A stretch of 63,038 nt of DNA, the filler included. It is 5 parts of 5 records of this genome, joined end to end, with 100 filler letters (N's around TTAATTAATTAA, not from the genome) between each part and the next. Parts side by side here need not be neighbours in the genome. Positions count along the whole stretch, not along the records: positions 39,877 to 63,038 come from SRR2962707_2379; 4 more parts are not named here. One strand, given 5' to 3'. The notes under the pieces are model-generated. The model was not told where the DNA came from. It saw only the letters and a program-made list of their open reading frames with translations, and did no database searches. A program made the position numbers and the translations under genes. Shown piece by piece: positions 7,004 to 52,469 of the stretch (the stretch's first letter is position 1; every line of letters starts with the position of its first letter).

Positions 7004-7103
7004 NNNNNNNNNNNNNNNNNNNNNNNNNNNNNNNNNNNNNNNNNNNNTTAATTAATTAANNNNNNNNNNNNNNNNNNNNNNNNNNNNNNNNNNNNNNNNN
7101 NNN
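7004..7103. other. Artificial contig linker
   Basis: 44 N + TTAATTAATTAA (stops in all frames) + 44 N. Confidence 0.98.
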
Positions 7104-23950: not shown

Positions 23951-24050
23951 NNNNNNNNNNNNNNNNNNNNNNNNNNNNNNNNNNNNNNNNNNNNTTAATT
24001 AATTAANNNNNNNNNNNNNNNNNNNNNNNNNNNNNNNNNNNNNNNNNNNN
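23951..24050. other. Artificial contig linker
   Basis: N44-TTAATTAATTAA-N44. Confidence 0.98.
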
Positions 24051-31685: not shown

Positions 31686-31785
31686 NNNNNNNNNNNNNNN
31701 NNNNNNNNNNNNNNNNNNNNNNNNNNNNNTTAATTAATTAANNNNNNNNNNNNNNNNNNNNNNNNNNNNNNNNNNNNNNNNNNNN
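31686..31785. other. Artificial contig linker
   Basis: N44-TTAATTAATTAA-N44. Confidence 0.98.
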
Positions 31786-39776: not shown

Positions 39777-39876
39777 NNNNNNNNNNNNNNNNNNNNNNNN
39801 NNNNNNNNNNNNNNNNNNNNTTAATTAATTAANNNNNNNNNNNNNNNNNNNNNNNNNNNNNNNNNNNNNNNNNNNN
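39777..39876. other. Artificial contig linker
   Basis: N44-TTAATTAATTAA-N44. Confidence 0.98.
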
Positions 39877-39933
39877 AGCGGAGCTATCTTAGTGCTTTCT
39901 GCTAAGTTCGGGGCGCACACCTGCTAGCTTCGC

Positions 39934-41073
39934 GTTATATTCAATATCCACCAGACTAAAAATTCAAATGAAAATGAAAAAAGCACTCTTAAGTTCAGCT
40001 ATTACAATACTTTTTACCTATGGCTTGACAGCACAAAATTCACTCTACATTGGCCCTCATTCAAGTTCTGATAATCAGGGTAGAATTGCAGCAACTGGAA
40101 CTAGTGCTGAGTTGTCACTATCCAACCGAACAGTCAATTCATTTGTCAGCAATCCAGCATTAGGAGAACGCTGGGTAATTTATAATACTGGAACAAATAC
40201 AGATGGTAGGTTAAGGTTTTGGACTGGTGGAGACAAGGTAACATTTACTAAAGAGGGTAATGTATATATTGGTTCTCAAATTGGGACAAACTCTGGGAGT
40301 GGAAGGTTTTCTGTTTCAGGGGATTTGGCAGAAATAAGTCTTAACAACCGACAGGTATCAAATTTTGTAGAAAGTCCGACAAACGGTGAAAGATGGGTGA
40401 TCTTTAATGATGGAACAACGACAGATGGAAAATTAAGGTTCTGGACTGGTGGAGACAAAGTGGTCTTTACCAAGGAAGGAAGAGTAGGAATTGGAACTTC
40501 TAATCCACAATACCCACTGGAGGTTGTTGGAGATCTAAAGGTTGGAAGGGTTGGTAATGATGCTTATGTTAGAATCGCTGGTGGCGGAAATATTGGACAT
40601 GTCAGTTGGTACAAAACAAATGGACAAAGGGCAGCTTATATGGGTTGGGGTAATTCAAGCATTGATGAATTCAACTTGAGACTTGAAAACAATTCAAAAT
40701 TTGTAATTGATGGAGGTAACGTTGGAATTGGAACGACTGATCCCATATCCAAACTTGCTGTAAATGGTCAAATCAGAGCAACTGAAGTAAAAGTTCTAAC
40801 TGATGTAAATAGCGTTCCAGACTTTGTATTTGAACCAAATTACGAGCTACGAACTCTTAAAGAGACCAAAGAATACATTGAAGAGAATAAACACCTTCCC
40901 GAAATTCCATCTGCTGCTGAAATTGGTGAGAACGGAATCGATCTTGGGGATATGAACATGCGACTTTTAAAGAAAATTGAGGAACTAACTCTATATCAAA
41001 TCGAACTGCTTGAGCGATTAGAGAAAGCAGAACAAGAGATATCCGAGCTAAAAACCAAGTAAAAGAATATAAC
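39934..41073 (+). mobile_element. Integron-cassette-like unit 1
   Basis: GTTATATTC (39934-39942) before the ORF; its exact reverse complement GAATATAAC (41065-41073) starts 2 bp after the stop. Confidence 0.55.
39968..41062 (+). CDS. Secreted fibre-like protein with GNVGIGT repeats and a tail-fibre-chaperone-like C-terminal coiled coil
   Basis: Signal peptide; two ~70-aa tandem repeats; PDFVF...HLPEIPSA...LLKKIEELTLY C-terminus common in Bacteroidota. Confidence 0.85.
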   Translation: MKMKKALLSSAITILFTYGLTAQNSLYIGPHSSSDNQGRIAATGTSAELSLSNRTVNSFVSNPALGERWVIYNTGTNTDGRLRFWTGGDKVTFTKEGNVYIGSQIGTNSGSGRFSVSGDLAEISLNNRQVSNFVESPTNGERWVIFNDGTTTDGKLRFWTGGDKVVFTKEGRVGIGTSNPQYPLEVVGDLKVGRVGNDAYVRIAGGGNIGHVSWYKTNGQRAAYMGWGNSSIDEFNLRLENNSKFVIDGGNVGIGTTDPISKLAVNGQIRATEVKVLTDVNSVPDFVFEPNYELRTLKETKEYIEENKHLPEIPSAAEIGENGIDLGDMNMRLLKKIEELTLYQIELLERLEKAEQEISELKTK

Positions 41074-41123
41074 AGACGCTCAAACTCCATAAGCTTTCGA
41101 GGTACTCGCAAAGGGCCCTCGCC

Positions 41124-41170
41124 TTTGTTGGTGTTCCCCACCAACAAATAGATAATCTTAGATATCCGAT
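41124..41170. repeat. REP-like hairpin plus tail, repeated at 42108-42139
   Basis: TTTGTTGGTG-ttccc-CACCAACAAA; CACCAACAAAnnnATAATCTTAGATAnCCGAT occurs twice (28/32 identical). Confidence 0.75.
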
Positions 41171-41299
41171 GAATCCTTAATCATCACTTTTAGTGAAAAA
41201 ATCCTCCCACAGCTGCTTAAACATGAATTCCCGCAAGAACTTTCCAAATGCAAAACACTACTTGCCGTTGAAGGTGTTGGCTAGCAGAGCTATCTTAGT

Positions 41300-42074
41300 G
41301 TTAGCAATAATGAAAATCAGGCATTATTTTCTGTTATTAATTTTAATTGCCGGCTGCAATCCAGTTCAGGATACAAATAATGGTAAATTGAAATTTTTCA
41401 ATAGGACTGGTAGTTTGGAGAAAGAAGAAATTAGATTAATAAAATCTATTGGATTGGAAGTAAATACTTTTCACCATTACTTTTCAGACATAGTCCTTTC
41501 CGAAGTAGCCTCGAATTCATTGAAATTAGATAAAAAGGATAGAACTCCCATTTCGGGAATTCTCTTTTGTGGTAAAAAAATCGAACCTCAAAAAGTATAT
41601 AATTTAAAGAATGCTCTTGCTAAAAGAGGCCTTATTCTTGAAGTTTCCATGACCAGATTATCTAATCGCTATTTTGACTTTAAGTTTCCTTATTATCAAG
41701 GCAAAACAGAATTAATAGATATTGACAAGCAATATTATAAGATTTATGAAACTAGAGATAGGAAGGATTTCATAGAACAACTAGAATATTATCAGGACGA
41801 TAAAAGTGTGCTTAAAGAAGTATATGAAGAATGGAAAGAAGCAATTAAAGTTTTTCCAATTTGGGCTGACCAAAATGAAAATGTGCTATTCTGTCCGTTG
41901 GAAATGAACGATTCTATAATTCATTCTATATACAAGGGGAAAGTAAAATATTCTTATAGTTTACAGGAAAATTTAACCAAAGGATGGGTTACGGAGGAAA
42001 GTGTAAAAGACGAAATCCGTAAGGATTACCCCAAAATTGATTTCTGGTTTTATTGACATAGCAATATTGCTAAC
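41300..42074 (+). mobile_element. Integron-cassette-like unit 2
   Basis: GTTAGCAATA (41300-41309) abuts the ATG; exact reverse complement TATTGCTAAC (42065-42074) starts 8 bp after the stop. Confidence 0.55.
41310..42056 (+). CDS. AT-rich hypothetical lipoprotein
   Basis: MKIRHYFLLLILIAGC lipoprotein signal; visibly more AT-rich than the oad genes downstream. Confidence 0.75.
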   Translation: MKIRHYFLLLILIAGCNPVQDTNNGKLKFFNRTGSLEKEEIRLIKSIGLEVNTFHHYFSDIVLSEVASNSLKLDKKDRTPISGILFCGKKIEPQKVYNLKNALAKRGLILEVSMTRLSNRYFDFKFPYYQGKTELIDIDKQYYKIYETRDRKDFIEQLEYYQDDKSVLKEVYEEWKEAIKVFPIWADQNENVLFCPLEMNDSIIHSIYKGKVKYSYSLQENLTKGWVTEESVKDEIRKDYPKIDFWFY

Positions 42075-42084
42075 AAATGATATG

Positions 42085-42232
42085 CTCACTCAGCCTTCCG
42101 TGTTGTCCACCAACAAACGTATAATCTTAGATAACCGATACCAGAATCACACTTGGATATAATCAACCAAACTCCTAGGAATATCATTATTGCGCGTCCG
42201 TTGGTGAAAACACACAACTGAGGCTCAGTGAG
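42085..42232. repeat. ~148-bp element with imperfect terminal inverted repeats (MITE/BIME-like)
   Basis: CTCACTCAGCCT...CACCAAC on the left, GTTGGTG...AGGCTCAGTGAG on the right. Confidence 0.5.
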
Positions 42233-42249
42233 AATGTCTGAAAATACTT

Positions 42250-42370
42250 CCAAGTACTTAGTACCAAGTACTCACTACTTATTACTCACTACCTACCTAA
42301 GTCTTCCGTCTAATGTCTTCCATCTATCGTCTCCCCATTATTCATTATCAATTGTCAATTATCCATTCAA
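42250..42370. repeat. Degenerate ~7-bp tandem repeats
   Basis: caagtac ttagtac caagtac tcactac ttattac tcactac; ttatcaa ttgtcaa ttatcca. Confidence 0.6.
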
Positions 42371-42481
42371 CAACTTATTCTTAACTAATTCATAATCATA
42401 TTTTTAACTATTGGTAAAAAATCGCTGGTTTGAATGTGTTTTAGTGCTTAAATTAGGCACTCTAACAACCAATCTACGCTT

Positions 42482-42715
42482 GTGGGTGAAACCATGTCAT
42501 CAGCATTTTCTTTGTTACTGGTAGGAATGATCACCGTGTTTGTGGTGTTGTTACTGGTAGTGGTCACGGGCAATCTGCTCATTCGTCTGGTCAACCGTAT
42601 TTCCGGTTCCGACATAGATGGAGGCATTTCCCCATCCACGGTGGCAGCCATCACATCAGCCGTAGAAGTGGTGACTCAGGGAAGAGGTCACGTCGAGAAG
42701 ATAGAAAAGCAATAA
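42482..42715 (+). CDS. oadG: Oxaloacetate decarboxylase gamma-like subunit
   Basis: Single TM GMITVFVVLLLVV; VAAITSAV; first gene of the operon. Confidence 0.8.
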   Translation: MGETMSSAFSLLLVGMITVFVVLLLVVVTGNLLIRLVNRISGSDIDGGISPSTVAAITSAVEVVTQGRGHVEKIEKQ

Positions 42716-42726
42716 ACAAAAAGACT

Positions 42727-44613
42727 ATGGGACGAGAGGTAGGCTTAAGCCTTATTTACCGTGACATGTGGCAGTCTTCAGGAAAGTACATGCCACGAAA
42801 AGACCAGCTCGAGCGTGTGGCCGGGCCAATTGTAGACATGGGATGCTTCCGCAGGGTAGAAACCAACGGGGGCGGATTCGAGCAGATCAACCTGCTTTAT
42901 GGGGAAAACCCGAACCATTCGGTGCGTGCCTGGACCAAGGCCTTCAATGAGGCAGGCATCCAGACACACATGCTGGAGCGTGGACTCAACGGACTTAGAA
43001 TGTTCCCGGTACCAAGAGACGTTCGTAAGCTGATGTTCAAGCTGAAGAAGCTGCAAGGAACAGATATCTCACGGTCATTCGATGGACTTAATGATACCCG
43101 TAATCTCAAGCTTTCGATCGACTATGCGAAAGAGGGTGGTATGATCTCACAGTGCTGTTTGTGTATCACGCACTCCAAGCTGCACACAGCAGATTATTAC
43201 ATCAAGATGGCCGGTGAGTTGATCGATATGGGTGCGGAAGAAATCTGCATCAAAGACATGGCCGGTGTGGGCCGTCCTGTTACGGTTGGACGAATCGTTG
43301 AAGGCATCAAAGCCATCAAAAAAGACATTGTGGTGCAATACCACGGGCACTCTGGTCCCGGATTCAGTGTGACTTCATCATTGGAAGCTGCACGTGCCGG
43401 AGCAGACTTTATTGATGTGGCCATGGAGCCGTTATCCTATGGTACCGTCCATGCGGACCTACTTACCATTCACGAAATGCTACGTGATGCCGGATTTAGC
43501 TTACCGGATATCAACATGAAGGCTTACATGCAAGCACGTTCACTCACACAGGAGTTCATCGATGATTTTCTGGGGTACTATATCAACCCGAAAAATCGTC
43601 AAATGAATGCCTTACTCATTGGTCCCGGATTACCGGGAGGAATGATGGGTAGCTTAATGGCTGATTTGGAAAACAACCTGAAGAGCCTCAACAAGTGGAT
43701 GGAGAAGAATGGCAAGCCAGCTGTCACACAAGACGACCTGTTGATTGCTTTGTTTGAAGAAGTACAGCATATCTGGCCGATCATGGGCTATCCACCTTTG
43801 GTGACGCCATTCAGCCAGTATGTGAAGAATGCAGCCCTTGTGAATGTGATGCAGATGATGAAAGGCAAGGAGCGATGGTCATTGTTGGACGATAACACCT
43901 GGGACATGGTTCTGGGTAAGTCAGGTCGTGTACCCGGCAAGGTTGGTGATGAACTTGTTAACCTGGCGAAGGAGCAAGGCAGGGAATTCTTCGAAGGTGA
44001 TCCTCAAGACCTGCAACCGGATGCACTGGATCAGTATCGGGAGCAAATGAAAGAGAAAGGTTGGGAAACCGGTCCGGATGATGAAGAGCTCTTCGAGTAT
44101 GCGATGCACCCGACCCAATACGAAGATTACAAATCAGGCAAGGCGAAGGCTGCATTTGAGAAAGATCTGGCAGAGAAACGGGCTCCAAAAGCGGAGGAAG
44201 CTCCAGCAGCTCCTGCTACATCTCAACCGGTTCATCAGCCGAAGACCATGAACATCAATGTGAATGGGGAGCAGTTCAAAGTGCATGTCTCGTATGATGA
44301 TCAACCAAATGGTGCGGCAGAATCGGCACCTCCAGTTCAGCAGGAAGCAGCACCAGCATCGTCAAACGGTACCAATGGTCAATCCAAAGAGATCATCGCA
44401 CCGCTGGAAGGTACGGTGTACTTTACCAAGGATTCAGGAGAGAAGGCCATTAAGGTGGGAGACACGGTCAAAGCCGGAGATATCGTCTGCTACATTGAGG
44501 CCATGAAGGTGAATAACGCCATCAAAGCAGATGTAAGTGGTGTGGTATGTGAGATCCTGGTGAAGGATGCGGAGGATGTGCTGGATGATGATGTCTTGTT
44601 CCGACTAAACTAA
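42727..44613 (+). CDS. oadA: Oxaloacetate decarboxylase alpha (carboxyltransferase + biotinyl domain)
   Basis: RDMWQSSGK (Bacteroidota variant), IKDMAG, PGGMMGS, YPPLVTPFSQ, EAMKV; flanked by gamma and beta subunits. Confidence 0.85.
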   Translation: MGREVGLSLIYRDMWQSSGKYMPRKDQLERVAGPIVDMGCFRRVETNGGGFEQINLLYGENPNHSVRAWTKAFNEAGIQTHMLERGLNGLRMFPVPRDVRKLMFKLKKLQGTDISRSFDGLNDTRNLKLSIDYAKEGGMISQCCLCITHSKLHTADYYIKMAGELIDMGAEEICIKDMAGVGRPVTVGRIVEGIKAIKKDIVVQYHGHSGPGFSVTSSLEAARAGADFIDVAMEPLSYGTVHADLLTIHEMLRDAGFSLPDINMKAYMQARSLTQEFIDDFLGYYINPKNRQMNALLIGPGLPGGMMGSLMADLENNLKSLNKWMEKNGKPAVTQDDLLIALFEEVQHIWPIMGYPPLVTPFSQYVKNAALVNVMQMMKGKERWSLLDDNTWDMVLGKSGRVPGKVGDELVNLAKEQGREFFEGDPQDLQPDALDQYREQMKEKGWETGPDDEELFEYAMHPTQYEDYKSGKAKAAFEKDLAEKRAPKAEEAPAAPATSQPVHQPKTMNINVNGEQFKVHVSYDDQPNGAAESAPPVQQEAAPASSNGTNGQSKEIIAPLEGTVYFTKDSGEKAIKVGDTVKAGDIVCYIEAMKVNNAIKADVSGVVCEILVKDAEDVLDDDVLFRLN

Positions 44614-44622
44614 CCGAAGCGC

Positions 44623-45813
44623 TTGGAGTTACTTAGAAAACTGTTTGAAATGACCGCTCTGGGAGAGATCGGGGCACATCCCGAATACCTCCTGATGATC
44701 GCGATCGCTTTCTTTTTGTTGTATTTAGGCATCAAGAAACAATACGAACCTTTGTTGCTGGTGCCTATTGCCTTTGGCATGTTGGTTGCCAACTTTCCCG
44801 GTGGACAAATGGGCGTGGTGAAGATCGATGAGTCGCTTACGCTGTACCAGATCGCCCAGCAGCATGGGATCATGAATTACCTGTACTATGCGCTGATTAA
44901 GACAGGCCTGTTGCCACCAATCATTTTTCTGGGTGTAGGAGCGTTGACAGATTTCGGTCCTATGCTTCGCAACCTGCGATTGGCATTCTTCGGAGCAGCT
45001 GCACAGATCGGTATTTTTACGGTTTTGATTTCAGCTGTGGCTCTTGGCTTCACCATGAAAGAAGCTGCGTCACTTGGTATTATTGGTGGTGCCGATGGTC
45101 CTACTGCGATTTATACGACCATCAAACTGGCGCCTCGACTGCTGGGGCCCATTGCGATTGCAGCGTATTCTTACATGGCGTTGGTGCCTGTGATCATTCC
45201 TTTGGTGGTACGGTTCACCATGACCAAGAATGAGCTGATGATCAACATGAAGGAGCAAGATCGATTGTATCCCCCAAAGCAACCGGTGAAGGATATTCAG
45301 ACATTGAAAATCCTATTTCCGATAGGAGTGGGAACAGTGGTTTTATTGTTGGTTCCTTCCGCAACACCTTTATTGGGCATGCTTTTTTTCGGCAACTTGG
45401 TAAAGGAGATCGGTGCCACAACGAAGCGATTGTCTTCGGCTGCTTCCGACACCATCCTCAATGCCTCTACAGTCTTCCTAGGTTTGACAGTAGGAGGCAC
45501 TATGACAGCCAAAGCCTTCTTGAACTGGGAGACCATCATGATCATAGCCGGTGGGTTTTTAGCGTTTGCCATCTCTATTGCAGGTGGCATTTTTGCTGTG
45601 AAGGCTTATAACTTGTTCTCAAAGAAGAAAATCAATCCATTGATTGGTGCGACAGGATTGAGCGCTGTGCCTATGGCCTCACGGGTCGCGAACGAATTGG
45701 CCTTGAAGCACGATCCAAACAACCACTTGTTGCAGTATGCGATGGCTTCTAATATTTCCGGTGTAATTGGAAGTGCGGTTGCTGCTGGGGTGTTGATTTC
45801 GTTTCTTGGGTAA
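44623..45813 (+). CDS. oadB: Na+-transporting decarboxylase beta subunit
   Basis: YEPLLLVPI, GIIGGADGPT, AAYSYMALVP, SAVPMASRV, NISGVIGSAVAAG. Confidence 0.92.
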   Translation: MELLRKLFEMTALGEIGAHPEYLLMIAIAFFLLYLGIKKQYEPLLLVPIAFGMLVANFPGGQMGVVKIDESLTLYQIAQQHGIMNYLYYALIKTGLLPPIIFLGVGALTDFGPMLRNLRLAFFGAAAQIGIFTVLISAVALGFTMKEAASLGIIGGADGPTAIYTTIKLAPRLLGPIAIAAYSYMALVPVIIPLVVRFTMTKNELMINMKEQDRLYPPKQPVKDIQTLKILFPIGVGTVVLLLVPSATPLLGMLFFGNLVKEIGATTKRLSSAASDTILNASTVFLGLTVGGTMTAKAFLNWETIMIIAGGFLAFAISIAGGIFAVKAYNLFSKKKINPLIGATGLSAVPMASRVANELALKHDPNNHLLQYAMASNISGVIGSAVAAGVLISFLG

Positions 45814-45869
45814 GAATTTAGAATACAGAATTCAGGAAATAGAATTCTGTATTCCATTTTCGAAGTTCT

Positions 45870-45981
45870 ATCAACTAATTACCTAATCCTCAAATCATCT
45901 AATCAACTAATCCTCAAATCATCTAATCAACTAATCAACTAATCTTCAAATCAACTAATCAACCAATCTCCTAATCACCTC
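45870..45981. repeat. 8-bp tandem repeat array (ATCAACTA/ATCCTCAA/ATCATCTA) running into the tcdA 3' end
   Basis: About 14 degenerate octamers including a duplicated 24-bp block. Confidence 0.8.
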
Positions 45982-46671
45982 TGCCGCCATCGTCATTCCA
46001 AACATCGCAGGCATATAAGAGATCGTACCATAGAAAGACTTTTTGTAGTTAGAGCCATCCGTCAGTTTCAGCGCATTCTTTGGCTGAATTTCTTCCGAAT
46101 AGACACATAGCACTCCTTTATCCACGCCTTTGTATTTGAGCATTTTGCGGAGTTGCTGAGCGAACTTGCACTCCCGTGTTTTGCTGATATCTGTTATTTG
46201 AATCTTGGAAGGATCAAGCTTGCCCCCGGCACCCATGGAAGAGATGAATTTGCACTTCATGCGACGTAATGTCAGAATCATCGACAACTTAGGTAGCACA
46301 CTATCGATGCAATCAAGGGAGAAATCAAAATGATTGTCCCTTAAAAACTTGTTCATGACATCAGGCTCCATGAAATGATCTATCACCGTGATATCCAGTT
46401 CAGGGTTGATGTCTAAAAAACGATCTTTCAGGAGGATAGCTTTTTGCTTGCCTACTGTCGAGTCTAAAGCTTGTAATTGACGGTTTTTATTGGTAGGGTC
46501 TACTAAATCACCGTCAATAATGGTGATTTTGCCCACACCTGCTCGTACCAATGTTTCTGCAGCGTAGCTACCTACGCCTCCAAGACCCGTCACAAGTATA
46601 TTGGATTCTTGAAGCTTCGCTAATGCTTCTTTCCCGATTAATAGCTCTGTCCGTTCTAACCAGTGACTCAT
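45955..46671 (-). CDS. tcdA: tRNA threonylcarbamoyladenosine dehydratase (ThiF family)
   Basis: GLGGVGS, NKNRQ, DCID, SSMGAGGKLDP, VYSEE, GTISYMPAMFG. Confidence 0.88.
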   Translation of the reverse strand: MSHWLERTELLIGKEALAKLQESNILVTGLGGVGSYAAETLVRAGVGKITIIDGDLVDPTNKNRQLQALDSTVGKQKAILLKDRFLDINPELDITVIDHFMEPDVMNKFLRDNHFDFSLDCIDSVLPKLSMILTLRRMKCKFISSMGAGGKLDPSKIQITDISKTRECKFAQQLRKMLKYKGVDKGVLCVYSEEIQPKNALKLTDGSNYKKSFYGTISYMPAMFGMTMAAEVIRRLVD

Positions 46672-47348
46672 CGATTGAAAAATTCGTGTGCGTTGTTATT
46701 CATTTGTTCCTTCAGCTCCGGAATTGAAATTCTGGTAATAGCTGACACCCGCGAATATATGTCGATGATCGTAACATCAGGCATGCTGTCTGTTTCCAGA
46801 AAAATCCGATCATGTGGGAGAGATTGAAACAACTCCTTGTATTTTTCATCTATCGTAGGCATTAAGGATAGGTAAAACCCTTGATCGATTAATTGTTTTC
46901 CAAGTATGGCATGACGACCATACCCGTGAATGCACCATTTACTGATAGATGGAAATTCCTTCTTAATCTTAGTAAGTTGATCGAATGCACGGACACAATG
47001 GATGATTACCGGCTTATTGATTTCATTAGCGATTCTCAACTGACTCCTCATTATCTCCATTTGAAGATTCATCTCAGGACCTTTCAGATTATCAAGTCCC
47101 ATTTCACCCATGGCCAGGCAATCGCTAAGCTTAAGTAGTCTGATCAGTTCCTGCTTCTGTTCTTCTGAGATGGGCACGTCTGTCCACCAAGGATGCATCC
47201 CTATGGTGAAAAGCTGATGTTCTTTTTCCTGGCCCAGATGCAGAGATACTATTTCTGTTACATCCTCATTGCTTGTCGCTCGTAGCGAATGGGTATGAAA
47301 ATCCAGGAAATGGTGTGGATTGAAAATTGACTGAAATAAGGTGTCCAT
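46668..47348 (-). CDS. TatD-family hydrolase
   Basis: DFHTH, GMHPW, GEMGLD, IHCVRA, FLETD. Confidence 0.88.
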   Translation of the reverse strand: MDTLFQSIFNPHHFLDFHTHSLRATSNEDVTEIVSLHLGQEKEHQLFTIGMHPWWTDVPISEEQKQELIRLLKLSDCLAMGEMGLDNLKGPEMNLQMEIMRSQLRIANEINKPVIIHCVRAFDQLTKIKKEFPSISKWCIHGYGRHAILGKQLIDQGFYLSLMPTIDEKYKELFQSLPHDRIFLETDSMPDVTIIDIYSRVSAITRISIPELKEQMNNNAHEFFNR

Positions 47349-47494
47349 GCAGAATAAAAGTAACAGAAAGAATATTATCGAATCACCATGAAAGAATTGA
47401 AATATCAGGATTTCTTAATAACTTGAATATGTAAATGTCTAAGGTTGATCTTTTAGATATTTCACCCTAATGTTAATATATACCACCACCTCCT

Positions 47495-47728
47495 ATGATA
47501 CAGATGTTAGAACGGGTCTCCGATCCCAAAATCGTAAGTGAAGTCTCACGTATGATTGAAAAAGAGTATGGGCTGGTTCACAATCGTGACTACCATATGA
47601 CGTTCGTTTATACCAAAGAACGTCCGCCTAAGATGAAGATTAAGATATTGAAAGAAGGGGCGGTTTACTCGCTGGAGAATCTTGAAGCCTCAGTTCAAAA
47701 GATCTACGATCATGCTGAAGTGAGCTAA
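47495..47728 (+). CDS. Hypothetical protein (77 aa)
   Basis: Isolated ORF followed by a terminator. Confidence 0.55.
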   Translation: MIQMLERVSDPKIVSEVSRMIEKEYGLVHNRDYHMTFVYTKERPPKMKIKILKEGAVYSLENLEASVQKIYDHAEVS

Positions 47729-47729
47729 C

Positions 47730-47756
47730 AAAAAAGCCCACCGAAGTGGGCCCTTT
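47730..47756. terminator. Terminator between convergent genes
   Basis: A6-GCCCAC-cgaa-GTGGGC. Confidence 0.7.
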
Positions 47757-47759
47757 ATC

Positions 47760-48176
47760 TTACTTTCTTCCGAGCATTATCCCAATCAGTCCACCCGCAA
47801 CACCCATCATTATGGCGGTTACAAGGACATCCACCATCGCGCCAGTTAGGTTCATCATGTTGGAGGTTCCATACATAATGAAGTTGTAGGCACAGCCAAG
47901 AATAAGCCCCAACATGGCACCATTCTTAAAACCGTCTCCAAAGGAGGTTACATTGGCCCATTTACCAAAAATGAACACAAGTAAATAGGCTTGGAACACA
48001 TTTCCTAAGATTAAAGACCACATGATCAGGTCTTCATCCGAGCGCATTACGTTTAATGCACTTCCAGAATTTTCTGCGTAGAAATCCACCAGAATAATAC
48101 CATAGAACAGCCATCCAAGAAGGAAGAAAGCGACGAACCCCACTAGGGTCGCCAGAATACGATTTTTAGCACTCAT
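47760..48176 (-). CDS. Four-TM membrane protein of unknown function
   Basis: FFLLGWLFYG and three more hydrophobic segments. Confidence 0.8.
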   Translation of the reverse strand: MSAKNRILATLVGFVAFFLLGWLFYGIILVDFYAENSGSALNVMRSDEDLIMWSLILGNVFQAYLLVFIFGKWANVTSFGDGFKNGAMLGLILGCAYNFIMYGTSNMMNLTGAMVDVLVTAIMMGVAGGLIGIMLGRK

Positions 48177-48241
48177 AATTTTTAGGTTAGTTACTCTATA
48201 AAGCTAACCAGATTCTTGGGAATTAACTATAGTTGATTGTG

Positions 48242-48577
48242 CTAGCCCTTTTTGACGAATTCTGACTTTAATGCCATGCTGCCAAACCCATCGATTTTGC
48301 AGTCAATGTTGTGATCACCCTCAACCAATCGGATGTTTTTAACCTTTGTTCCTGCCTTGATAGGTTTTGGAGCACCTTTTACCGGCAGGTCTTTGATCAC
48401 TACAACTGTGTCACCATCCTGCAAGACGTTTCCATTTGAATCCTTTACTTCAGAAGATGATTCTTCAACGACTTCATCAGGATTCCATTCATGGCCACAT
48501 TCAGGACACATCAGGAGGGTGTCAGTAGGATAGGTGTATTGAGATTGACAGTTTGGGCAGGGAGGGAATTCTGACAT
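48242..48577 (-). CDS. Zinc-ribbon protein YjdM/PhnA family
   Basis: CPNC...[36 protein letters not shown]. Confidence 0.9.
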
Positions 48578-48643
48578 GGAGATAATGATTTTTTTTCTAA
48601 GCTCAAATTTAGTTGAGATGTCATAGAAATCAGCCAATCAAGC

Positions 48644-48669
48644 ACTTATGTAACAATTGTTACATAAGT
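48644..48669. promoter_or_regulatory. Perfect 26-bp palindrome, candidate operator
   Basis: ACTTATGTAACAATTGTTACATAAGT equals its own reverse complement. Confidence 0.7.
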
Positions 48670-48687
48670 CTTCTCATCAACCCGACC

Positions 48688-48703
48688 CATGACAAAACTC
48701 ATG
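48688..48703. promoter_or_regulatory. Crp/Fnr-geometry inverted repeat
   Basis: CATGA-CAAAAC-TCATG (TGA-N6-TCA), ~50 bp upstream of the reductase operon. Confidence 0.45.
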
Positions 48704-48752
48704 TTTTCGGAGGATTGTATGGCCTAGTTTGCATTATATACCTACATAAGCA

Positions 48753-50993
48753 ATGAAATACAACCGTCGAGATTTTATCAAAATTTCATCCTTAGGATTA
48801 GGTGGTGCTGCTTTTGCTACAACAATATTTGACACAGCGACCGCCAGCATATTATCCGGGGAAGTTGAGAACACACTGAAATACGCCACGAGAACTCCAA
48901 CTTATTGTGAAGTCTGCTTTTGGAAGTGTGCTGCCTGGGTAACTAAAAATGAAGATGGAGAGATATGGAAAGTAGAAGGTCATCAGGATGATCCACACTG
49001 CAATGGAAGACTTTGCCCCAGAGGAACCGGAGGCGTAGGCATGTACCACGATAAGGATCGTTTGAAAAAGCCTTTGATGCGTGTTGAGAAAGATGGCAAG
49101 CAAACCTTCGAAGAAGTCAGCTGGGACAAAGCCTTCGATTTCATCAGCTCTAAAATGAAGGACATCAAGGATAAATACGGGCCTGAATCCATGGCTTTAT
49201 TCACACATGGTTCTGGAGGAAAATTCCTTGGCCATTTGATGAAAGCTTATGGTAGTCCGCATATCACAGCGCCATCCTTTGCTCAGTGTCGTGGGCCAAG
49301 GGAAGTAGCATTCTATTCCACCTTTGGGGAAGGCATCTATTCACCGGAACGAACAGATATTCGAGACACCAAATGCCTTGTGCTTATCGGTTCTCAAATA
49401 GGTGAAAACATGCACAATGGTCAGGTACAGGAAATGTCAGAAGCCATTGATAAACAGGCTACTATCATTACTGTGGATCCTCGATTCTCTACTGCAGCAA
49501 GTAAATCCAAGCATTGGCTGCCTATCAAACCAGCTACTGACTTAGCGCTATTACTTGCCTGGATGAATGTGATCATAAACGAAGGATGGTATGACAAAGA
49601 GTACGTGGAGAAATATGCCTTTGGATTTGATGAATTGAAAGCGCACGTGCAGCAATACACGCCTGAATGGGCCTATGGCATTACCACGCTTGAGCCAAAA
49701 GTGATCCGTGAAACAGCGCGAGAAATGGCTGCAGCTTCTCCAGCTGTTATCATACACCCGGGAAGACATGTGACTTGGTATGGTGACGATACACAGCGAT
49801 TACGTGCTGTGGCAATCCTGAATGCTTTGTTAGGCAGCTGGGGCAGAAGAGGTGGATTCTACTTCCCTGAGAAAGTGACGATTCCAAGCTATCCGCACCC
49901 TCCATATCCTAAACCAAAATATGCATGGCAGTCAGCCAACCCGGATAAATACCCGATGGCTACTGAAGTGGTTTCTAATGGCGTTGTTGATGCTACTTTT
50001 CCTTCAGAAGAGCGTGATTATAGCATCAAAGGCTGGATTGTAAATGGTACCAATCTTATCCATACACTTCCAGATCAAAAGCGTACGCTTGAGGCCATTC
50101 AACAGCTTGAGCTCATGGTAGTCATTGACACCATGCCTATGGAAATAACAGGCTATGCGGATATTGTGCTTCCAGAGTGTACGTACCTCGAGCGCTATGA
50201 TGCAATCCGGGATTCGCTTCACAGGGAACCGGTGATTTCCCTTCGTATGCCGGCAGTAGAGCCGAAATACGATTCCAAACCAGACTGGTGGATCGCAAAA
50301 CAGCTAGGAGAACGTCTGGGCCTTAACGAGTTTTTCGGATATAAAGACATTGAAGAAATGCTTGATTGGCAGTTGAAACAAGTGGGAAGTTCACTTGAAG
50401 AAATGCAGAAAGTAGGAGTGAAGAAATTCAAACGACCATATGATGACCTCTATCTGGTGGATGGTCAGGATTTTGAGTTTGGAACACCTACAGGCAAGAT
50501 TGAACTTTACGCGACTGATTTAGCTGCTGAGGGCTTTGATCCGCTTCCATCTTATACGGAGCATGATCAACCGCCAGCTGGGTTTTACCGATTGAACTAC
50601 GGTCGTACGCCTGCTCACACTTTTAGCAGAACAACCAACAATCCAAACTTATCCAGTATTTACAAGGAGAATGATTTGTGGGTGAATCCAAAGGTCGCCA
50701 AGCAATGGGGGCTTAAGAATGGCCAATATGTATGGTTGAAAAACCAGAATGATGTGGTGTCAAGCTTTTCCATCAAAGTGCGGGTAACTGAGCGTATTCG
50801 ATGGGATTCTGTGTACATGGTGCATGGATTCGGTCATACCGGAAATAAGCTTACACGGGCTTTTGGTAAAGGAGCAAGTGATACGGAACTCATGAGCAAT
50901 GTGAAGTTGGATCCGATCATGGGAGGAACAGGCATGCGGGAAAACTTTGTGACTTTTTTAACTGAACAACCTGAAAAAGAAGAAAAACTATGA
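48753..50993 (+). CDS. Tat-exported molybdopterin oxidoreductase, PsrA/PhsA/SrrA clade
   Basis: NRRDFIK Tat motif; CEVCFWKC...LCPRG Fe-S site; PSFAQCRGPR Cys ligand region; TPTGKIE; substrate not determinable. Confidence 0.88.
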   Translation: MKYNRRDFIKISSLGLGGAAFATTIFDTATASILSGEVENTLKYATRTPTYCEVCFWKCAAWVTKNEDGEIWKVEGHQDDPHCNGRLCPRGTGGVGMYHDKDRLKKPLMRVEKDGKQTFEEVSWDKAFDFISSKMKDIKDKYGPESMALFTHGSGGKFLGHLMKAYGSPHITAPSFAQCRGPREVAFYSTFGEGIYSPERTDIRDTKCLVLIGSQIGENMHNGQVQEMSEAIDKQATIITVDPRFSTAASKSKHWLPIKPATDLALLLAWMNVIINEGWYDKEYVEKYAFGFDELKAHVQQYTPEWAYGITTLEPKVIRETAREMAAASPAVIIHPGRHVTWYGDDTQRLRAVAILNALLGSWGRRGGFYFPEKVTIPSYPHPPYPKPKYAWQSANPDKYPMATEVVSNGVVDATFPSEERDYSIKGWIVNGTNLIHTLPDQKRTLEAIQQLELMVVIDTMPMEITGYADIVLPECTYLERYDAIRDSLHREPVISLRMPAVEPKYDSKPDWWIAKQLGERLGLNEFFGYKDIEEMLDWQLKQVGSSLEEMQKVGVKKFKRPYDDLYLVDGQDFEFGTPTGKIELYATDLAAEGFDPLPSYTEHDQPPAGFYRLNYGRTPAHTFSRTTNNPNLSSIYKENDLWVNPKVAKQWGLKNGQYVWLKNQNDVVSSFSIKVRVTERIRWDSVYMVHGFGHTGNKLTRAFGKGASDTELMSNVKLDPIMGGTGMRENFVTFLTEQPEKEEKL

Positions 50994-51523
50994 GGTATGC
51001 AATGGCCATCGACACGAAGAAATGCATTGGCTGTGGGGACTGTGTGGTAGCGTGTCAAATTGAAAACAACGTGCCTGAAGGATTCTGTCGGGAATGGATC
51101 GTAGAAGCGGTCAGCGGAACCTATCCAAATCTTGAACTAGAGTTTCGCTCCGAAAGGTGCCACCATTGTGCCAACGCTCCCTGCGTGCGTTGCTGTCCGA
51201 CTGGCTCCAGCCATATAGTGGAAGGCGGTATCGTCCTGGTAGATCCTGATAAATGCATTGGCTGTGGGGCATGCATCGCCTCCTGCCCGTATGATGCACG
51301 GTATCCTCATCCTGATGGATACGTGGATAAATGTACTTTCTGCGTACATAAAGTGCGAAAAGGAGAGCAACCAGCCTGTGTACAGGTATGTCCTACGAAC
51401 TGTTTGTATTTCGGCGACCTGGATGATCCTAACAGTGAAATCTCTAAGAAGATCAAGGAGAGAAAATACAAACGCATGAAAACGGAAGCCGGAACAGACC
51501 CTCAGTTGTACTTTTTAATCTGA
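50990..51523 (+). CDS. 4x[4Fe-4S] electron-transfer subunit (PsrB/NrfC-like)
   Basis: CIGCGDC, CHHCANAPC, CIGCGAC, KCTFC, PACVQVCP. Confidence 0.92.
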   Translation: MRYAMAIDTKKCIGCGDCVVACQIENNVPEGFCREWIVEAVSGTYPNLELEFRSERCHHCANAPCVRCCPTGSSHIVEGGIVLVDPDKCIGCGACIASCPYDARYPHPDGYVDKCTFCVHKVRKGEQPACVQVCPTNCLYFGDLDDPNSEISKKIKERKYKRMKTEAGTDPQLYFLI

Positions 51524-51527
51524 TACC

Positions 51528-52469
51528 ATGGAAGAAGAATTAATCATAAGCGGAAGAATGAACGACAGGGTAGATCCTGTCCTCAATATTTGGCATTGGG
51601 AAATTCCATTTTACTTGTTTGTTGGAGGGTTAGCTGCCGGAATACTGTTTTTTGCAGCCTTCTATTATCTGAATGGCAAAGAGAAAGAGTATCCTGCTGC
51701 CGTGAAAGTAGCTCCTATGATCACCCCATTTTTGCTGATCATCGGATTGATCGCGCTGTTCCTGGATTTGAATCATAAACTGTATTTCTGGCGTCTTTAT
51801 ACCACGGTTCGACTTGAATCACCCATGTCATGGGGTGCATGGACTTTGATGGTGGTGACACCTTTATCGTTCATCTGGGCAGCCATCCACATGAAAGAAA
51901 TCTTCCCGAAATGGGATTGGAAATTCGAAATCTTGAATAAGATCGAGAAATTCTTAATTGCCAATAAACGAGTCATTGCCTGGATAATGGCAATTTATTC
52001 TGTCTTATTGGGGATTTATACCGGAGTATTGCTTAGCGCATTCAATGCTCGGCCACTTTGGAATACGTCTATTCTAGGGCCACTTTTCCTTGCTTCAGGG
52101 CTTTCAGCTGGTGCGGCTGTCATTGTGCTATTCTCTAAAAACAAACTGGAACGAAGACTATTCAGCAAGATTGATATCATCATCATCGGGGCTGAATTGT
52201 TCTTCATCATCCACATGTTTATGGGATTGCTTGCAAGTACCGAGGTGCAGATAGAAGCCGCTCAACTCTTCCTAAACGGTCCATACACATTACCGTTCTG
52301 GATTTTTGTAGTCTTCCTTGGCATGCTGGTTCCGGCGTTACTTGAGTTTCTGGAATTACGGGGACAAAAGATCCCGGTATTGATTCCGGTGGCATTGATC
52401 CTTCTGGGAAACATCATGCTTCGATTTTTAATAGTTTATGCCGGTCAGGCAAGTAGGTATTTATATTGA
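51528..52469 (+). CDS. NrfD/PsrC membrane anchor
   Basis: WHWEIPFYLFVGGLAAG, LFLDL, SPMSWGAW, YTGVLL, RPLWNT. Confidence 0.9.
   Translation: MEEELIISGRMNDRVDPVLNIWHWEIPFYLFVGGLAAGILFFAAFYYLNGKEKEYPAAVKVAPMITPFLLIIGLIALFLDLNHKLYFWRLYTTVRLESPMSWGAWTLMVVTPLSFIWAAIHMKEIFPKWDWKFEILNKIEKFLIANKRVIAWIMAIYSVLLGIYTGVLLSAFNARPLWNTSILGPLFLASGLSAGAAVIVLFSKNKLERRLFSKIDIIIIGAELFFIIHMFMGLLASTEVQIEAAQLFLNGPYTLPFWIFVVFLGMLVPALLEFLELRGQKIPVLIPVALILLGNIMLRFLIVYAGQASRYLY

Follow-up and report, generated by a model that had tools for sequence, protein, structure and literature searches.

We have identified what we read, with a probability of about 0.8, as the recombinase-distal, partly decayed end of an integron-like cassette array of Bacteroidota, of the type of clusters known as rAID (for recombinase-associated acquired interbacterial defence). 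It occupies positions 39878-42245 of the window, by which we mean the whole stretch of DNA analysed (63,038 nucleotides (nt), five contigs). Two open reading frames (ORFs) are each enclosed there by a short pair of complementary sequences with GTT and AAC cores, and the units are divided by long, partly conserved sites ordered R''-spacer-L''...L'-spacer-R', a layout that recurs in other genera. An earlier note on this DNA had proposed integron-type cassettes, and that reading has held: split-stem ends were found in all four Ekhidna cassettes (4/4), in 13 cassettes of the chromosome G056 and at no fewer than five of eight genes in a Parabacteroides array. The features of the array, all on the + strand, are listed below; L and G with a number are our labels for the loci and genomes used in comparison.

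39878-39933, +: attC_0, the predicted 3' half of the preceding site, cut by the contig edge (alignment A4; string match to array sites)
39934-39942, +: R' of cassette 1, GTTATATTC, with the same start in L122, L123 and L194
39968-41062, +: ORF1, 364 amino acids (aa), with a signal-peptide-like N-terminus; stop codon at 41060-41062
41065-41073, +: R'' of cassette 1, GAATATAAC, 9/9 complementary to 39934-39942
41065-41301, +: attC_1, a predicted, truncated site with R'', a local hairpin (41124-41148), a 40-nt repeat (41131-41170) and a conserved loop segment (41284-41300)
41300-41309, +: R' of cassette 2, GTTAGCAATA, abutting the ATG at 41310
41310-42056, +: ORF2, 248 aa; stop codon at 42054-42056
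42065-42074, +: R'' of cassette 2, TATTGCTAAC, 10/10 complementary to 41300-41309
42065-42245, +: attC_2, the predicted last site of the array, in which L'' (42079-42095) pairs with L' (42221-42238)

In both window cassettes (2/2) the start complements the cassette's own R'': reversed and complemented, the first 9-10 bases (G|TTATATTC in cassette 1, G|TTAGCAATA in cassette 2) give the sequence that directly follows the stop codon. The crossover of cassette 1 would fall between G 39934 and T 39935. The two GTT/AAC pairs had been described in the earlier note, together with AAC sites close to the stop codons, an ATG abutting its GTT and co-oriented, AT-rich ORFs; all four sequences are present with the complementarity claimed (9/9 and 10/10), the coordinates agree, and the ORFs are indeed co-oriented in DNA of 36% GC. 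A 17-nt direct repeat stands shortly before each gene (39878-39894 and from 41284) and a 40-nt direct repeat after each gene (from 41131 and from 42100), both absent elsewhere in the window.

In order to gauge the part of chance, exact complements of at least 9 nt were sought for every ORF in contig 5 and the related loci, comparing the last 45 nt ahead of its start with the first 25 nt beyond its stop. Such a complement was present in 11 of 1019 ORFs (1.1%, ORF1 included), and a single pair of this kind would be unremarkable by itself; because only 1.1% of ORFs have one, two adjacent ORFs that both carry GTT/AAC pairs are unlikely to have arisen by chance. A scan for complementary flanks had been suggested in the earlier note, and among 25 related loci it gains its weight from homologues of ORF1. 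In Agaribacillus aureus (L122) and on an Ekhidna chromosome (L123), the gene is preceded by GTTATATTC and has TAAAAGAATATAAC at its end; GTTATATTC upstream and GAATATAAC downstream are kept though the N-terminal halves of the proteins are unlike. We take this recurrence in two other genera to be the decisive control against chance. The same note had named, as the outcome that would speak against it, flanks not enriched over chance around genes fixed and syntenic in relatives; ORF1 and ORF2 are instead missing upstream of the oxaloacetate decarboxylase (oad) operon, which follows the array, in 80 relatives' loci.

The sites that adjoin these pairs point the same way. Past the contig edge, attC_0 is made up of a conserved loop segment (39878-39894), an inner-stem arm L' (39910-39928) and a 5-nt spacer (39929-39933), and the L'-spacer-GTT string of 39910-39942 is identical in nine sites (one each in L185, L191 and L213, three each in L194 and L195). 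Because Ekhidna and Cyclobacteriaceae arrays that are headed by a recombinase have this string in their sites, the contig begins inside an array-type site, in keeping with the earlier suggestion that the array continues past the contig edge; the recombinase of this genome would be expected to the left of that edge. In alignment A4, homology between the 3' part of attC_1 and Ekhidna sites extends as far as the 17-nt repeat. In attC_2, the inner stem is formed by the 40-nt repeat (42100-42139) pairing with GTTGGTGAAAACAC downstream, and the site folds as a hairpin (z -2.6 and -2.2). The integron-type order of site elements is thus found in the 3' half of attC_0 and in the R''-L''...L' of attC_2. 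From the first AAC to the second GTT we measured 226 nt, where the earlier note had given ~225 bp and thought it long for a classical attC; in the Ekhidna and G056 arrays, eight of the nine inter-cassette spacers inspected measure 232-239 nt, so the window spacer is of normal size for these arrays.

Arrays in relatives display the same arrangement at greater length. In Ekhidna (L123), downstream of fabF, rnc and nadE, four consecutive cassettes have perfect end complements of 9, 10, 10 and 10 nt; their units start with GTT plus six or seven bases, the reverse complement of which lies just past the stop codon, and their cargo is an ORF1 homologue, a DUF6161 protein, a 152-aa ORF and a RES-domain protein. 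The Cyclobacteriaceae chromosome G056 (OZ245027) carries 13 consecutive cassettes with complementary ends over ~20 kb, encoding a RES toxin, a helix-turn-helix (HTH) protein, an FGE-sulfatase-like protein, as well as numerous ORFs that belong to no family. In the Bacteroidales, the recombinase at the head of a Parabacteroides distasonis array shares 49% identity with that of G056 (P0126, described below) and is followed by Tdi1 and SMI1/KNR4 immunity genes, at least five of eight genes having complementary TTA.../...TAA(C) ends of 8-9 nt versus one of eight controls (a low-complexity match). The likeness of this recombinase and the split ends place the window system in the same wider family as the rAID-1-type array.

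Between sites of the G056 array lie two genes for IS110-family transposases (L185 16192-17259, + strand, and L187 4567-5634, + strand), which have the same Pfam scores and are oriented opposite to the cassettes. This is reminiscent of the IS1111-attC group, whose members target integron attC sites. IS110 transposases were considered as the mobilizing enzyme and rejected, as they leave the complementary cassette ends unexplained.

One further unit resembles a fusion. The first 462 nt of the unit at L189 9023-10369 match a cassette of L190 (13877-14373) and its last 772 nt a cassette of L194 (8944-10045), at ~70% identity, and the three units have the common end boxes GTTAGGAGC/GCTCCTAAC. The L189 unit looks like two cassettes fused after loss of the intervening site, and ORF1 and ORF2 may have lost theirs in the same way.

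Some of the sites in relatives are shorter. In L122 and L123, an imperfect palindrome of ~121 nt comes after the AAC; it terminates in GTT and folds into an outer stem, a 5/6-nt internal loop, an inner stem of 16-17 bp and a 60-nt loop (z -2.8 to -3.9). BLAST located this element in 20 of the 301 genomes sampled from the order, with E ≤1.6e-13 in 16. In an alignment of 21 copies, length and inner-stem sequence are constant, and variation is seen in the bases beyond ...YAAC and GTTR.... From this alignment a covariance model (R1) was built, which detected one to nine copies in each of five genomes, scattered over the chromosomes. These sites occur singly or in small groups, for example at positions 787720, 2373590, 2635237, 2637298 and 2674996 of G404:C1 and at nine places in G056:C1, and the recombinase gene of G404, at 1.478 Mb, is far from the dispersed sites; cassettes therefore also exist outside the main array, for example right after nadE in Ekhidna. 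An exact 8-mer partner within 1.45 kb on each side was found upstream for four of the 21 sites and downstream for five of 21, versus one and none, respectively, in controls with the wrong partner.

The arrays of relatives have a recombinase of their own. P0126 is a 289-aa tyrosine recombinase that heads the G056 array on the same strand as the cassettes. It passes the NCBIfam model NF040815 ("XerA / integron integrase") with 222.6 bits (cut-off 220), reaches 205.7 bits in two stretches on the integron-integrase model TIGR02249 (cut-off 265), and aligns end to end with archaeal XerA (PDB 5hxy; E 2.4e-43). It has 28 residues where the Vibrio integrase VchIntIA (PDB 2a3v) has 71, so the IntI-specific insertion, called essential for integron function in the available passages of a classification paper (PMC8138268), is absent from P0126. 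A classical integrase, implied by the earlier note, is accordingly not what heads the arrays of relatives. Relatives of P0126 with 40-84% identity over most of the protein were found in Cyclobacteriaceae, Marinoscillum, Ekhidna, Flammeovirgaceae, Roseivirgaceae, Flavobacteriaceae and metagenome-assembled genomes of Bacteroidales. At 24 recombinase loci (P0126 and 23 relatives), 58 ORF-hugging GTT/AAC pairs were counted in 98,474 nt downstream versus 14 in 126,592 nt upstream. From the stop codon of the co-oriented gene, which encodes a recombinase of 280-290 aa, it is 45-80 nt to the start of the first cassette, and at 13 of the 15 loci inspected a palindrome of 10-12 bp followed by G|TT was recognized by eye after that gene; the sequence of the palindrome varies among genomes and its symmetry is kept. 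From its place in the layout, the palindrome with its GTT would be an attI-like entry site.

We know of only one process that yields split complementary ends of this kind, namely that of integrons, in which a circular cassette with a hairpin site is cut at G|TT on integration. By analogy, we infer an integron mechanism for these cassettes. On the cassette circle, R'' and R' would close the stem of a hairpin; the recombinase would cut this stem between G and TT and join it either to the site next to the recombinase gene or to the site of a different cassette; and integration would split the stem so that its two halves come to lie before and behind the cassette gene, as happens in integrons.

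Several observations weigh against this interpretation. No recombinase was found in the window, either by tblastn with P0126 (best E 0.8) or by Pfam searches of 19 further ORFs of the contig; the earlier note had likewise seen no integrase. Before its junction TG|TTAGCAATA, attC_1 is missing ~40 nt (L' and the spacer), and taken whole its ends do not pair in the fold, while attC_2 has no GTT after L' and is followed by the chromosomal oad operon. Model R1 has no match in the window and gives only weak matches on the long sites, and the minimum-energy structure of one such site (L123 6715-6956) is not folded end to end. The inner stem of the 121-nt sites is without covariation support because the sequences are too alike, and a folding strand bias is absent, the bottom strand being better in 12 of 21 copies with a mean difference of 0.01 kcal/mol, so the folds give no sign of recombination on a single or a particular strand. 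Cassettes common to different genera could partly mean descent rather than transfer. Finally, cassette circles, excision and the action of the enzyme are predictions from sequence.

As to strand, the internal loop of the 121-nt site is asymmetric (5/6 nt), and what is an A-C mismatch on its top strand is G-T on the bottom strand. The earlier note had proposed in-silico folding of circularised units; of the window sites as they stand, attC_2 forms its hairpin, the ends of attC_1 stay unpaired, and the contig-start fragment by itself has no significant fold (z -0.8). The junction of attC_1 at G|TT fits secondary-site recombination or a deletion ending there. Since attC_1 has lost L', ORF1 and ORF2 probably no longer move separately.

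Another explanation, which we regard as improbable, is a classical integron or CALIN (a cluster of attC sites without an integron integrase) in which a true IntI, encoded elsewhere in the genome or on a mobile element, serves the cassettes and the Xer-like gene is a bystander. Both the logic of the sites and their AAC/GTT cores are the same as in integrons, many 121-nt sites lie far from any recombinase, and Bacteroidota are listed among the integron phyla in the available parts of two papers, one of them a review (PMC8618304, PMC9668308). A true IntI did not come to light, however: there was no TIGR02249 match of 265 bits or more in the Agaribacillus and Ekhidna genomes (G224, G404), nor did any match reach E 1e-55 when 301 genomes of the order were searched, the latter a weak negative as the control genomes were silent too. 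It is also hard to see a bystander in an Xer-like gene that, in many genomes, stands co-oriented at the head of the array with the first cassette 45-80 nt further on.

A similarly improbable explanation is that ORF1 and ORF2 are ordinary fixed genes with regulatory repeats (promoter, terminator or elements like repetitive extragenic palindromes (REPs)) and that the complements reflect chance or pairing of mRNA ends. The hairpin at 41124-41148 does belong to a low-copy palindrome family, TTGTTGGTG-N4/5-CACCAACAA, present at 3-8 sites in three of the five genomes searched (0 for the reversed-pattern control), and this palindrome also occurs in intergenic regions outside arrays, for example upstream of large genes in G155; in addition, GAGCTATCTTAG resembles the -7 promoter motif of Bacteroidota. 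The palindrome covers only ~25 of the 40 repeated bases, however, and regulatory repeats leave unexplained both the pairs, which are cassette-specific yet always complementary in several genomes, and their position behind a recombinase. The absence of ORF1 and ORF2 upstream of the oad operon in the 80 relatives' loci likewise speaks against fixed genes. Chance alone, as two unrelated inverted repeats of 9-10 nt in AT-rich DNA, is scarcely credible, for even though ~1% of ORFs (11/1019) have such a repeat and a 63-kb window was available in which to find one, the same pair flanks ORF1 homologues in two other genera and the adjoining sites are homologous to array sites.

The palindrome family was followed beyond the window. 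Copies are located at 41124-41148 of the window, in L084/L085, at L120 10607-11125 and at L121 3421-3474; in G155 the palindrome lies ~350-400 nt upstream of two large ORFs (1228 and 1159 aa). It could be an operator, or else the relic of a cassette site. An origin of the window repeats as REPs or miniature inverted-repeat transposable elements (MITEs) was considered and rejected, as TTGTTGGTG-N4-CACCAACAA is a separate low-copy family and the cassette pairs are left unexplained. The pattern of the 40-nt repeat had no matches in the genome_contigs or viral_contigs collections (0 in each), and three matches in metagenome_contigs were put down to chance, as similarity did not extend outside the pattern. 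Among 401 genomes of G001's family there were two matches, and these pointed to an intergenic element, related to the repeat, in G224 and G155. This element (L085 1370-1600, - strand, and L084) lies between an AraC-like gene and a gene for a large repeat protein, is homologous over ~200 nt to the interior of attC_2 and has no cassette-like gene alongside; it is possibly a solitary or relic site.

The cargo of the window cassettes belongs to no Pfam or NCBIfam family. The family of ORF1 is very large in Bacteroidota (5130 proteins at E ≤0.001 among 7997 candidates scored) and has weak matches to phage tail-fibre profiles. ORF2, whose hydrophobic N-terminal stretch ends in ...IAGC, is probably a lipoprotein. 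It is orphan-like, with five homologues only, all on metagenome contigs of ≤2.2 kb, and was not found in five related genomes. Searches for its function gave a PHROG match at E 0.03 only and a best protein-atlas score of 0.76, nothing usable, and its AlphaFold2 model is poor (mean pLDDT 50.7). The low GC (36%) and an orphan-like ORF2 on short contigs are as expected of cassettes.

The record itself resembles a concatenated draft or a mixed bin. Its five contigs are separated by four linkers of the form N44-TTAATTAATTAA-N44 (7004-7103, 23951-24050, 31686-31785 and 39777-39876); because the linkers are artificial, neighbourhood across the joints is meaningless. The array begins at the first base past the last joint (39877/39878), on contig 5, which has ~43% GC where contigs 1-4 have 49-59%. 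Within contig 5, GC is 36% at 40001-42000, 42-47% at 42001-52000 and 40-45% over the remaining contig. The oxaloacetate decarboxylase alpha subunit of contig 5 is 83% identical to its homologue in a metagenome-assembled genome of Cyclobacteriaceae, and the best 80 relatives are Cytophagales and other Bacteroidota; on these similarities we assign contig 5 to the Cytophagales. The array is bordered as follows.

39777-39876, no strand: artificial contig joint (N44, TTAATTAATTAA, N44), with a different contig, of 54-59% GC, to its left
42482-45813, +: oad operon, consisting of a 77-aa ORF without a family and the alpha and beta subunits; chromosomal flank outside the array

Outside the Bacteroidota, a recombinase related to P0126 was noticed beside a resistance gene. 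At L218 4007-6190, on the Acinetobacter indicus plasmid p80-1-2-tetX3, a truncated recombinase is 57.7% identical to residues 63-284 of P0126, and a co-oriented tet(X3) follows 190 nt after it, in the position of a first cassette. The gene is preceded by GTTATGTGCC and followed by GGCTACTAAC, which by eye are complementary at 7 of 10 positions. The segment after tet(X3) resembles the conserved loop of the 121-nt sites, and R1 detects no site there. The layout xerD-tet(X3)-ISCR2 has reportedly been published already. From this arrangement, tet(X3) could be read as a cassette of such an array.

A wider proposal is about evenly balanced in our judgement. It holds that one family of short Xer/XerA-like recombinases, spread across the Bacteroidota (Cytophagales, Flavobacteriales and Bacteroidales, including the rAID-1 arrays), may carry out true integron chemistry without the IntI insertion, with recombination of hairpin sites at G|TT and capture beside the recombinase's own gene. 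If this is true, gene capture of the integron type would be far commoner than IntI-based surveys report. The arrays would then also be a possible source of resistance cassettes in pathogens, in view of tet(X3) in first-cassette position behind a truncated recombinase. Should the enzyme work on folded sites without the IntI insertion, the requirements for integron recombination would change. The analysis offers a concrete site model, with stem halves split at G|TT and an entry site of a palindrome plus GTT after the recombinase gene.

Among known systems, REPs and MITEs have many dispersed copies regardless of gene boundaries, whereas the window repeats are confined to 39878-42139. Rfam, which has no attC family, returned nothing relevant in the window or in the relatives' elements. 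XerA is a resolvase of chromosome dimers. P0126 resembles the archaeal enzyme (222.6 bits on NF040815 against a cut-off of 220, and the end-to-end alignment with 5hxy), but its gene, unlike one with that role, heads cassette arrays. A short run of cassette sites without an integrase on the contig is what the window has in common with CALIN elements. Draft assemblies split integrons at similar attC sites, according to the passages available of the IntegronFinder 2.0 paper (PMC9024848), and a contig that starts inside a site fits this. CALIN elements are, however, defined by the attC model of IntegronFinder, whereas the relatives' arrays described here have their own recombinase of another kind. 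The same passages mention, for Bacteroidetes, only In0 elements from the authors' earlier study, in addition to one complete Salinibacter integron. Surveys in which IntI defines an integron find next to none in Bacteroidetes; they would miss the arrays described here, which combine that site logic with a different and shorter recombinase, or call them integrase-less.

With the sedentary chromosomal integrons of Vibrio (VchIntIA), the arrays share the order R''-spacer-L''...L'-spacer-R', the AAC/GTT cores, cassette starts that complement their own R'', co-orientation of the cassettes, sites that are homogeneous within a lineage, and genes that are mostly unknown or toxin-antitoxin-like. They differ in that P0126 is without the IntI insertion (28 versus 71 residues) and below the TIGR02249 cut-off (205.7 versus 265 bits), that the recombinase gene is co-oriented with the cassettes, that a palindromic attI-like site follows its stop codon, and that many sites are ~235 nt long.

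The closest likeness is to rAID-1, described for Bacteroidales (Ross et al.; 10.1101/471110, PMC12247911, available passages). The earlier note had suggested a cassette-capture system in a phylum in which integrons are rarely reported; the system fits, but it is not unprecedented, as rAID-1 has been published (10.1101/471110). A rAID-1 cluster has, in 5' position, an XerD-like tyrosine recombinase, which for the window would lie past the contig edge and in relatives stands at the array head. It is recognized by two or more co-oriented downstream genes at GC ≤41% (10.1101/471110), and the window has two co-oriented ORFs at 36% GC. Conserved repetitive intergenic sequences, another rAID-1 trait, are represented in the window by the 17-nt and 40-nt repeats and by the homology to array sites. 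The cargo is different: rAID-1 carries orphan immunity genes, whereas no immunity domain is recognizable with Pfam or NCBIfam in ORF1 or ORF2, which could still have an immunity function of an unrecognized kind. Hairpin sites and a G|TT crossover do not appear in the available rAID-1 passages, and the portions available of PMC12247911 contain none of the words attC, hairpin, cassette and excision (0 times each). Outside the rAID supplements, in which the motifs are shown, the literature searched, as far as its texts were available, yielded no account of a split-stem site logic for such arrays. The arrays also differ in host and dimensions, rAID-1 belonging to Bacteroidales and the window array to Cytophagales, with sites of ~120 or ~235 nt in Cytophagales arrays versus ~60-90 nt in the Parabacteroides array. 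In the relatives of the window array, the cargo comprises, among others, RES toxins and HTH proteins as well as an FGE-sulfatase-like protein and IS110 elements. On this reading, the locus extends the rAID-type system from immunity arrays of gut Bacteroidales to marine Cytophagales with other cargo.

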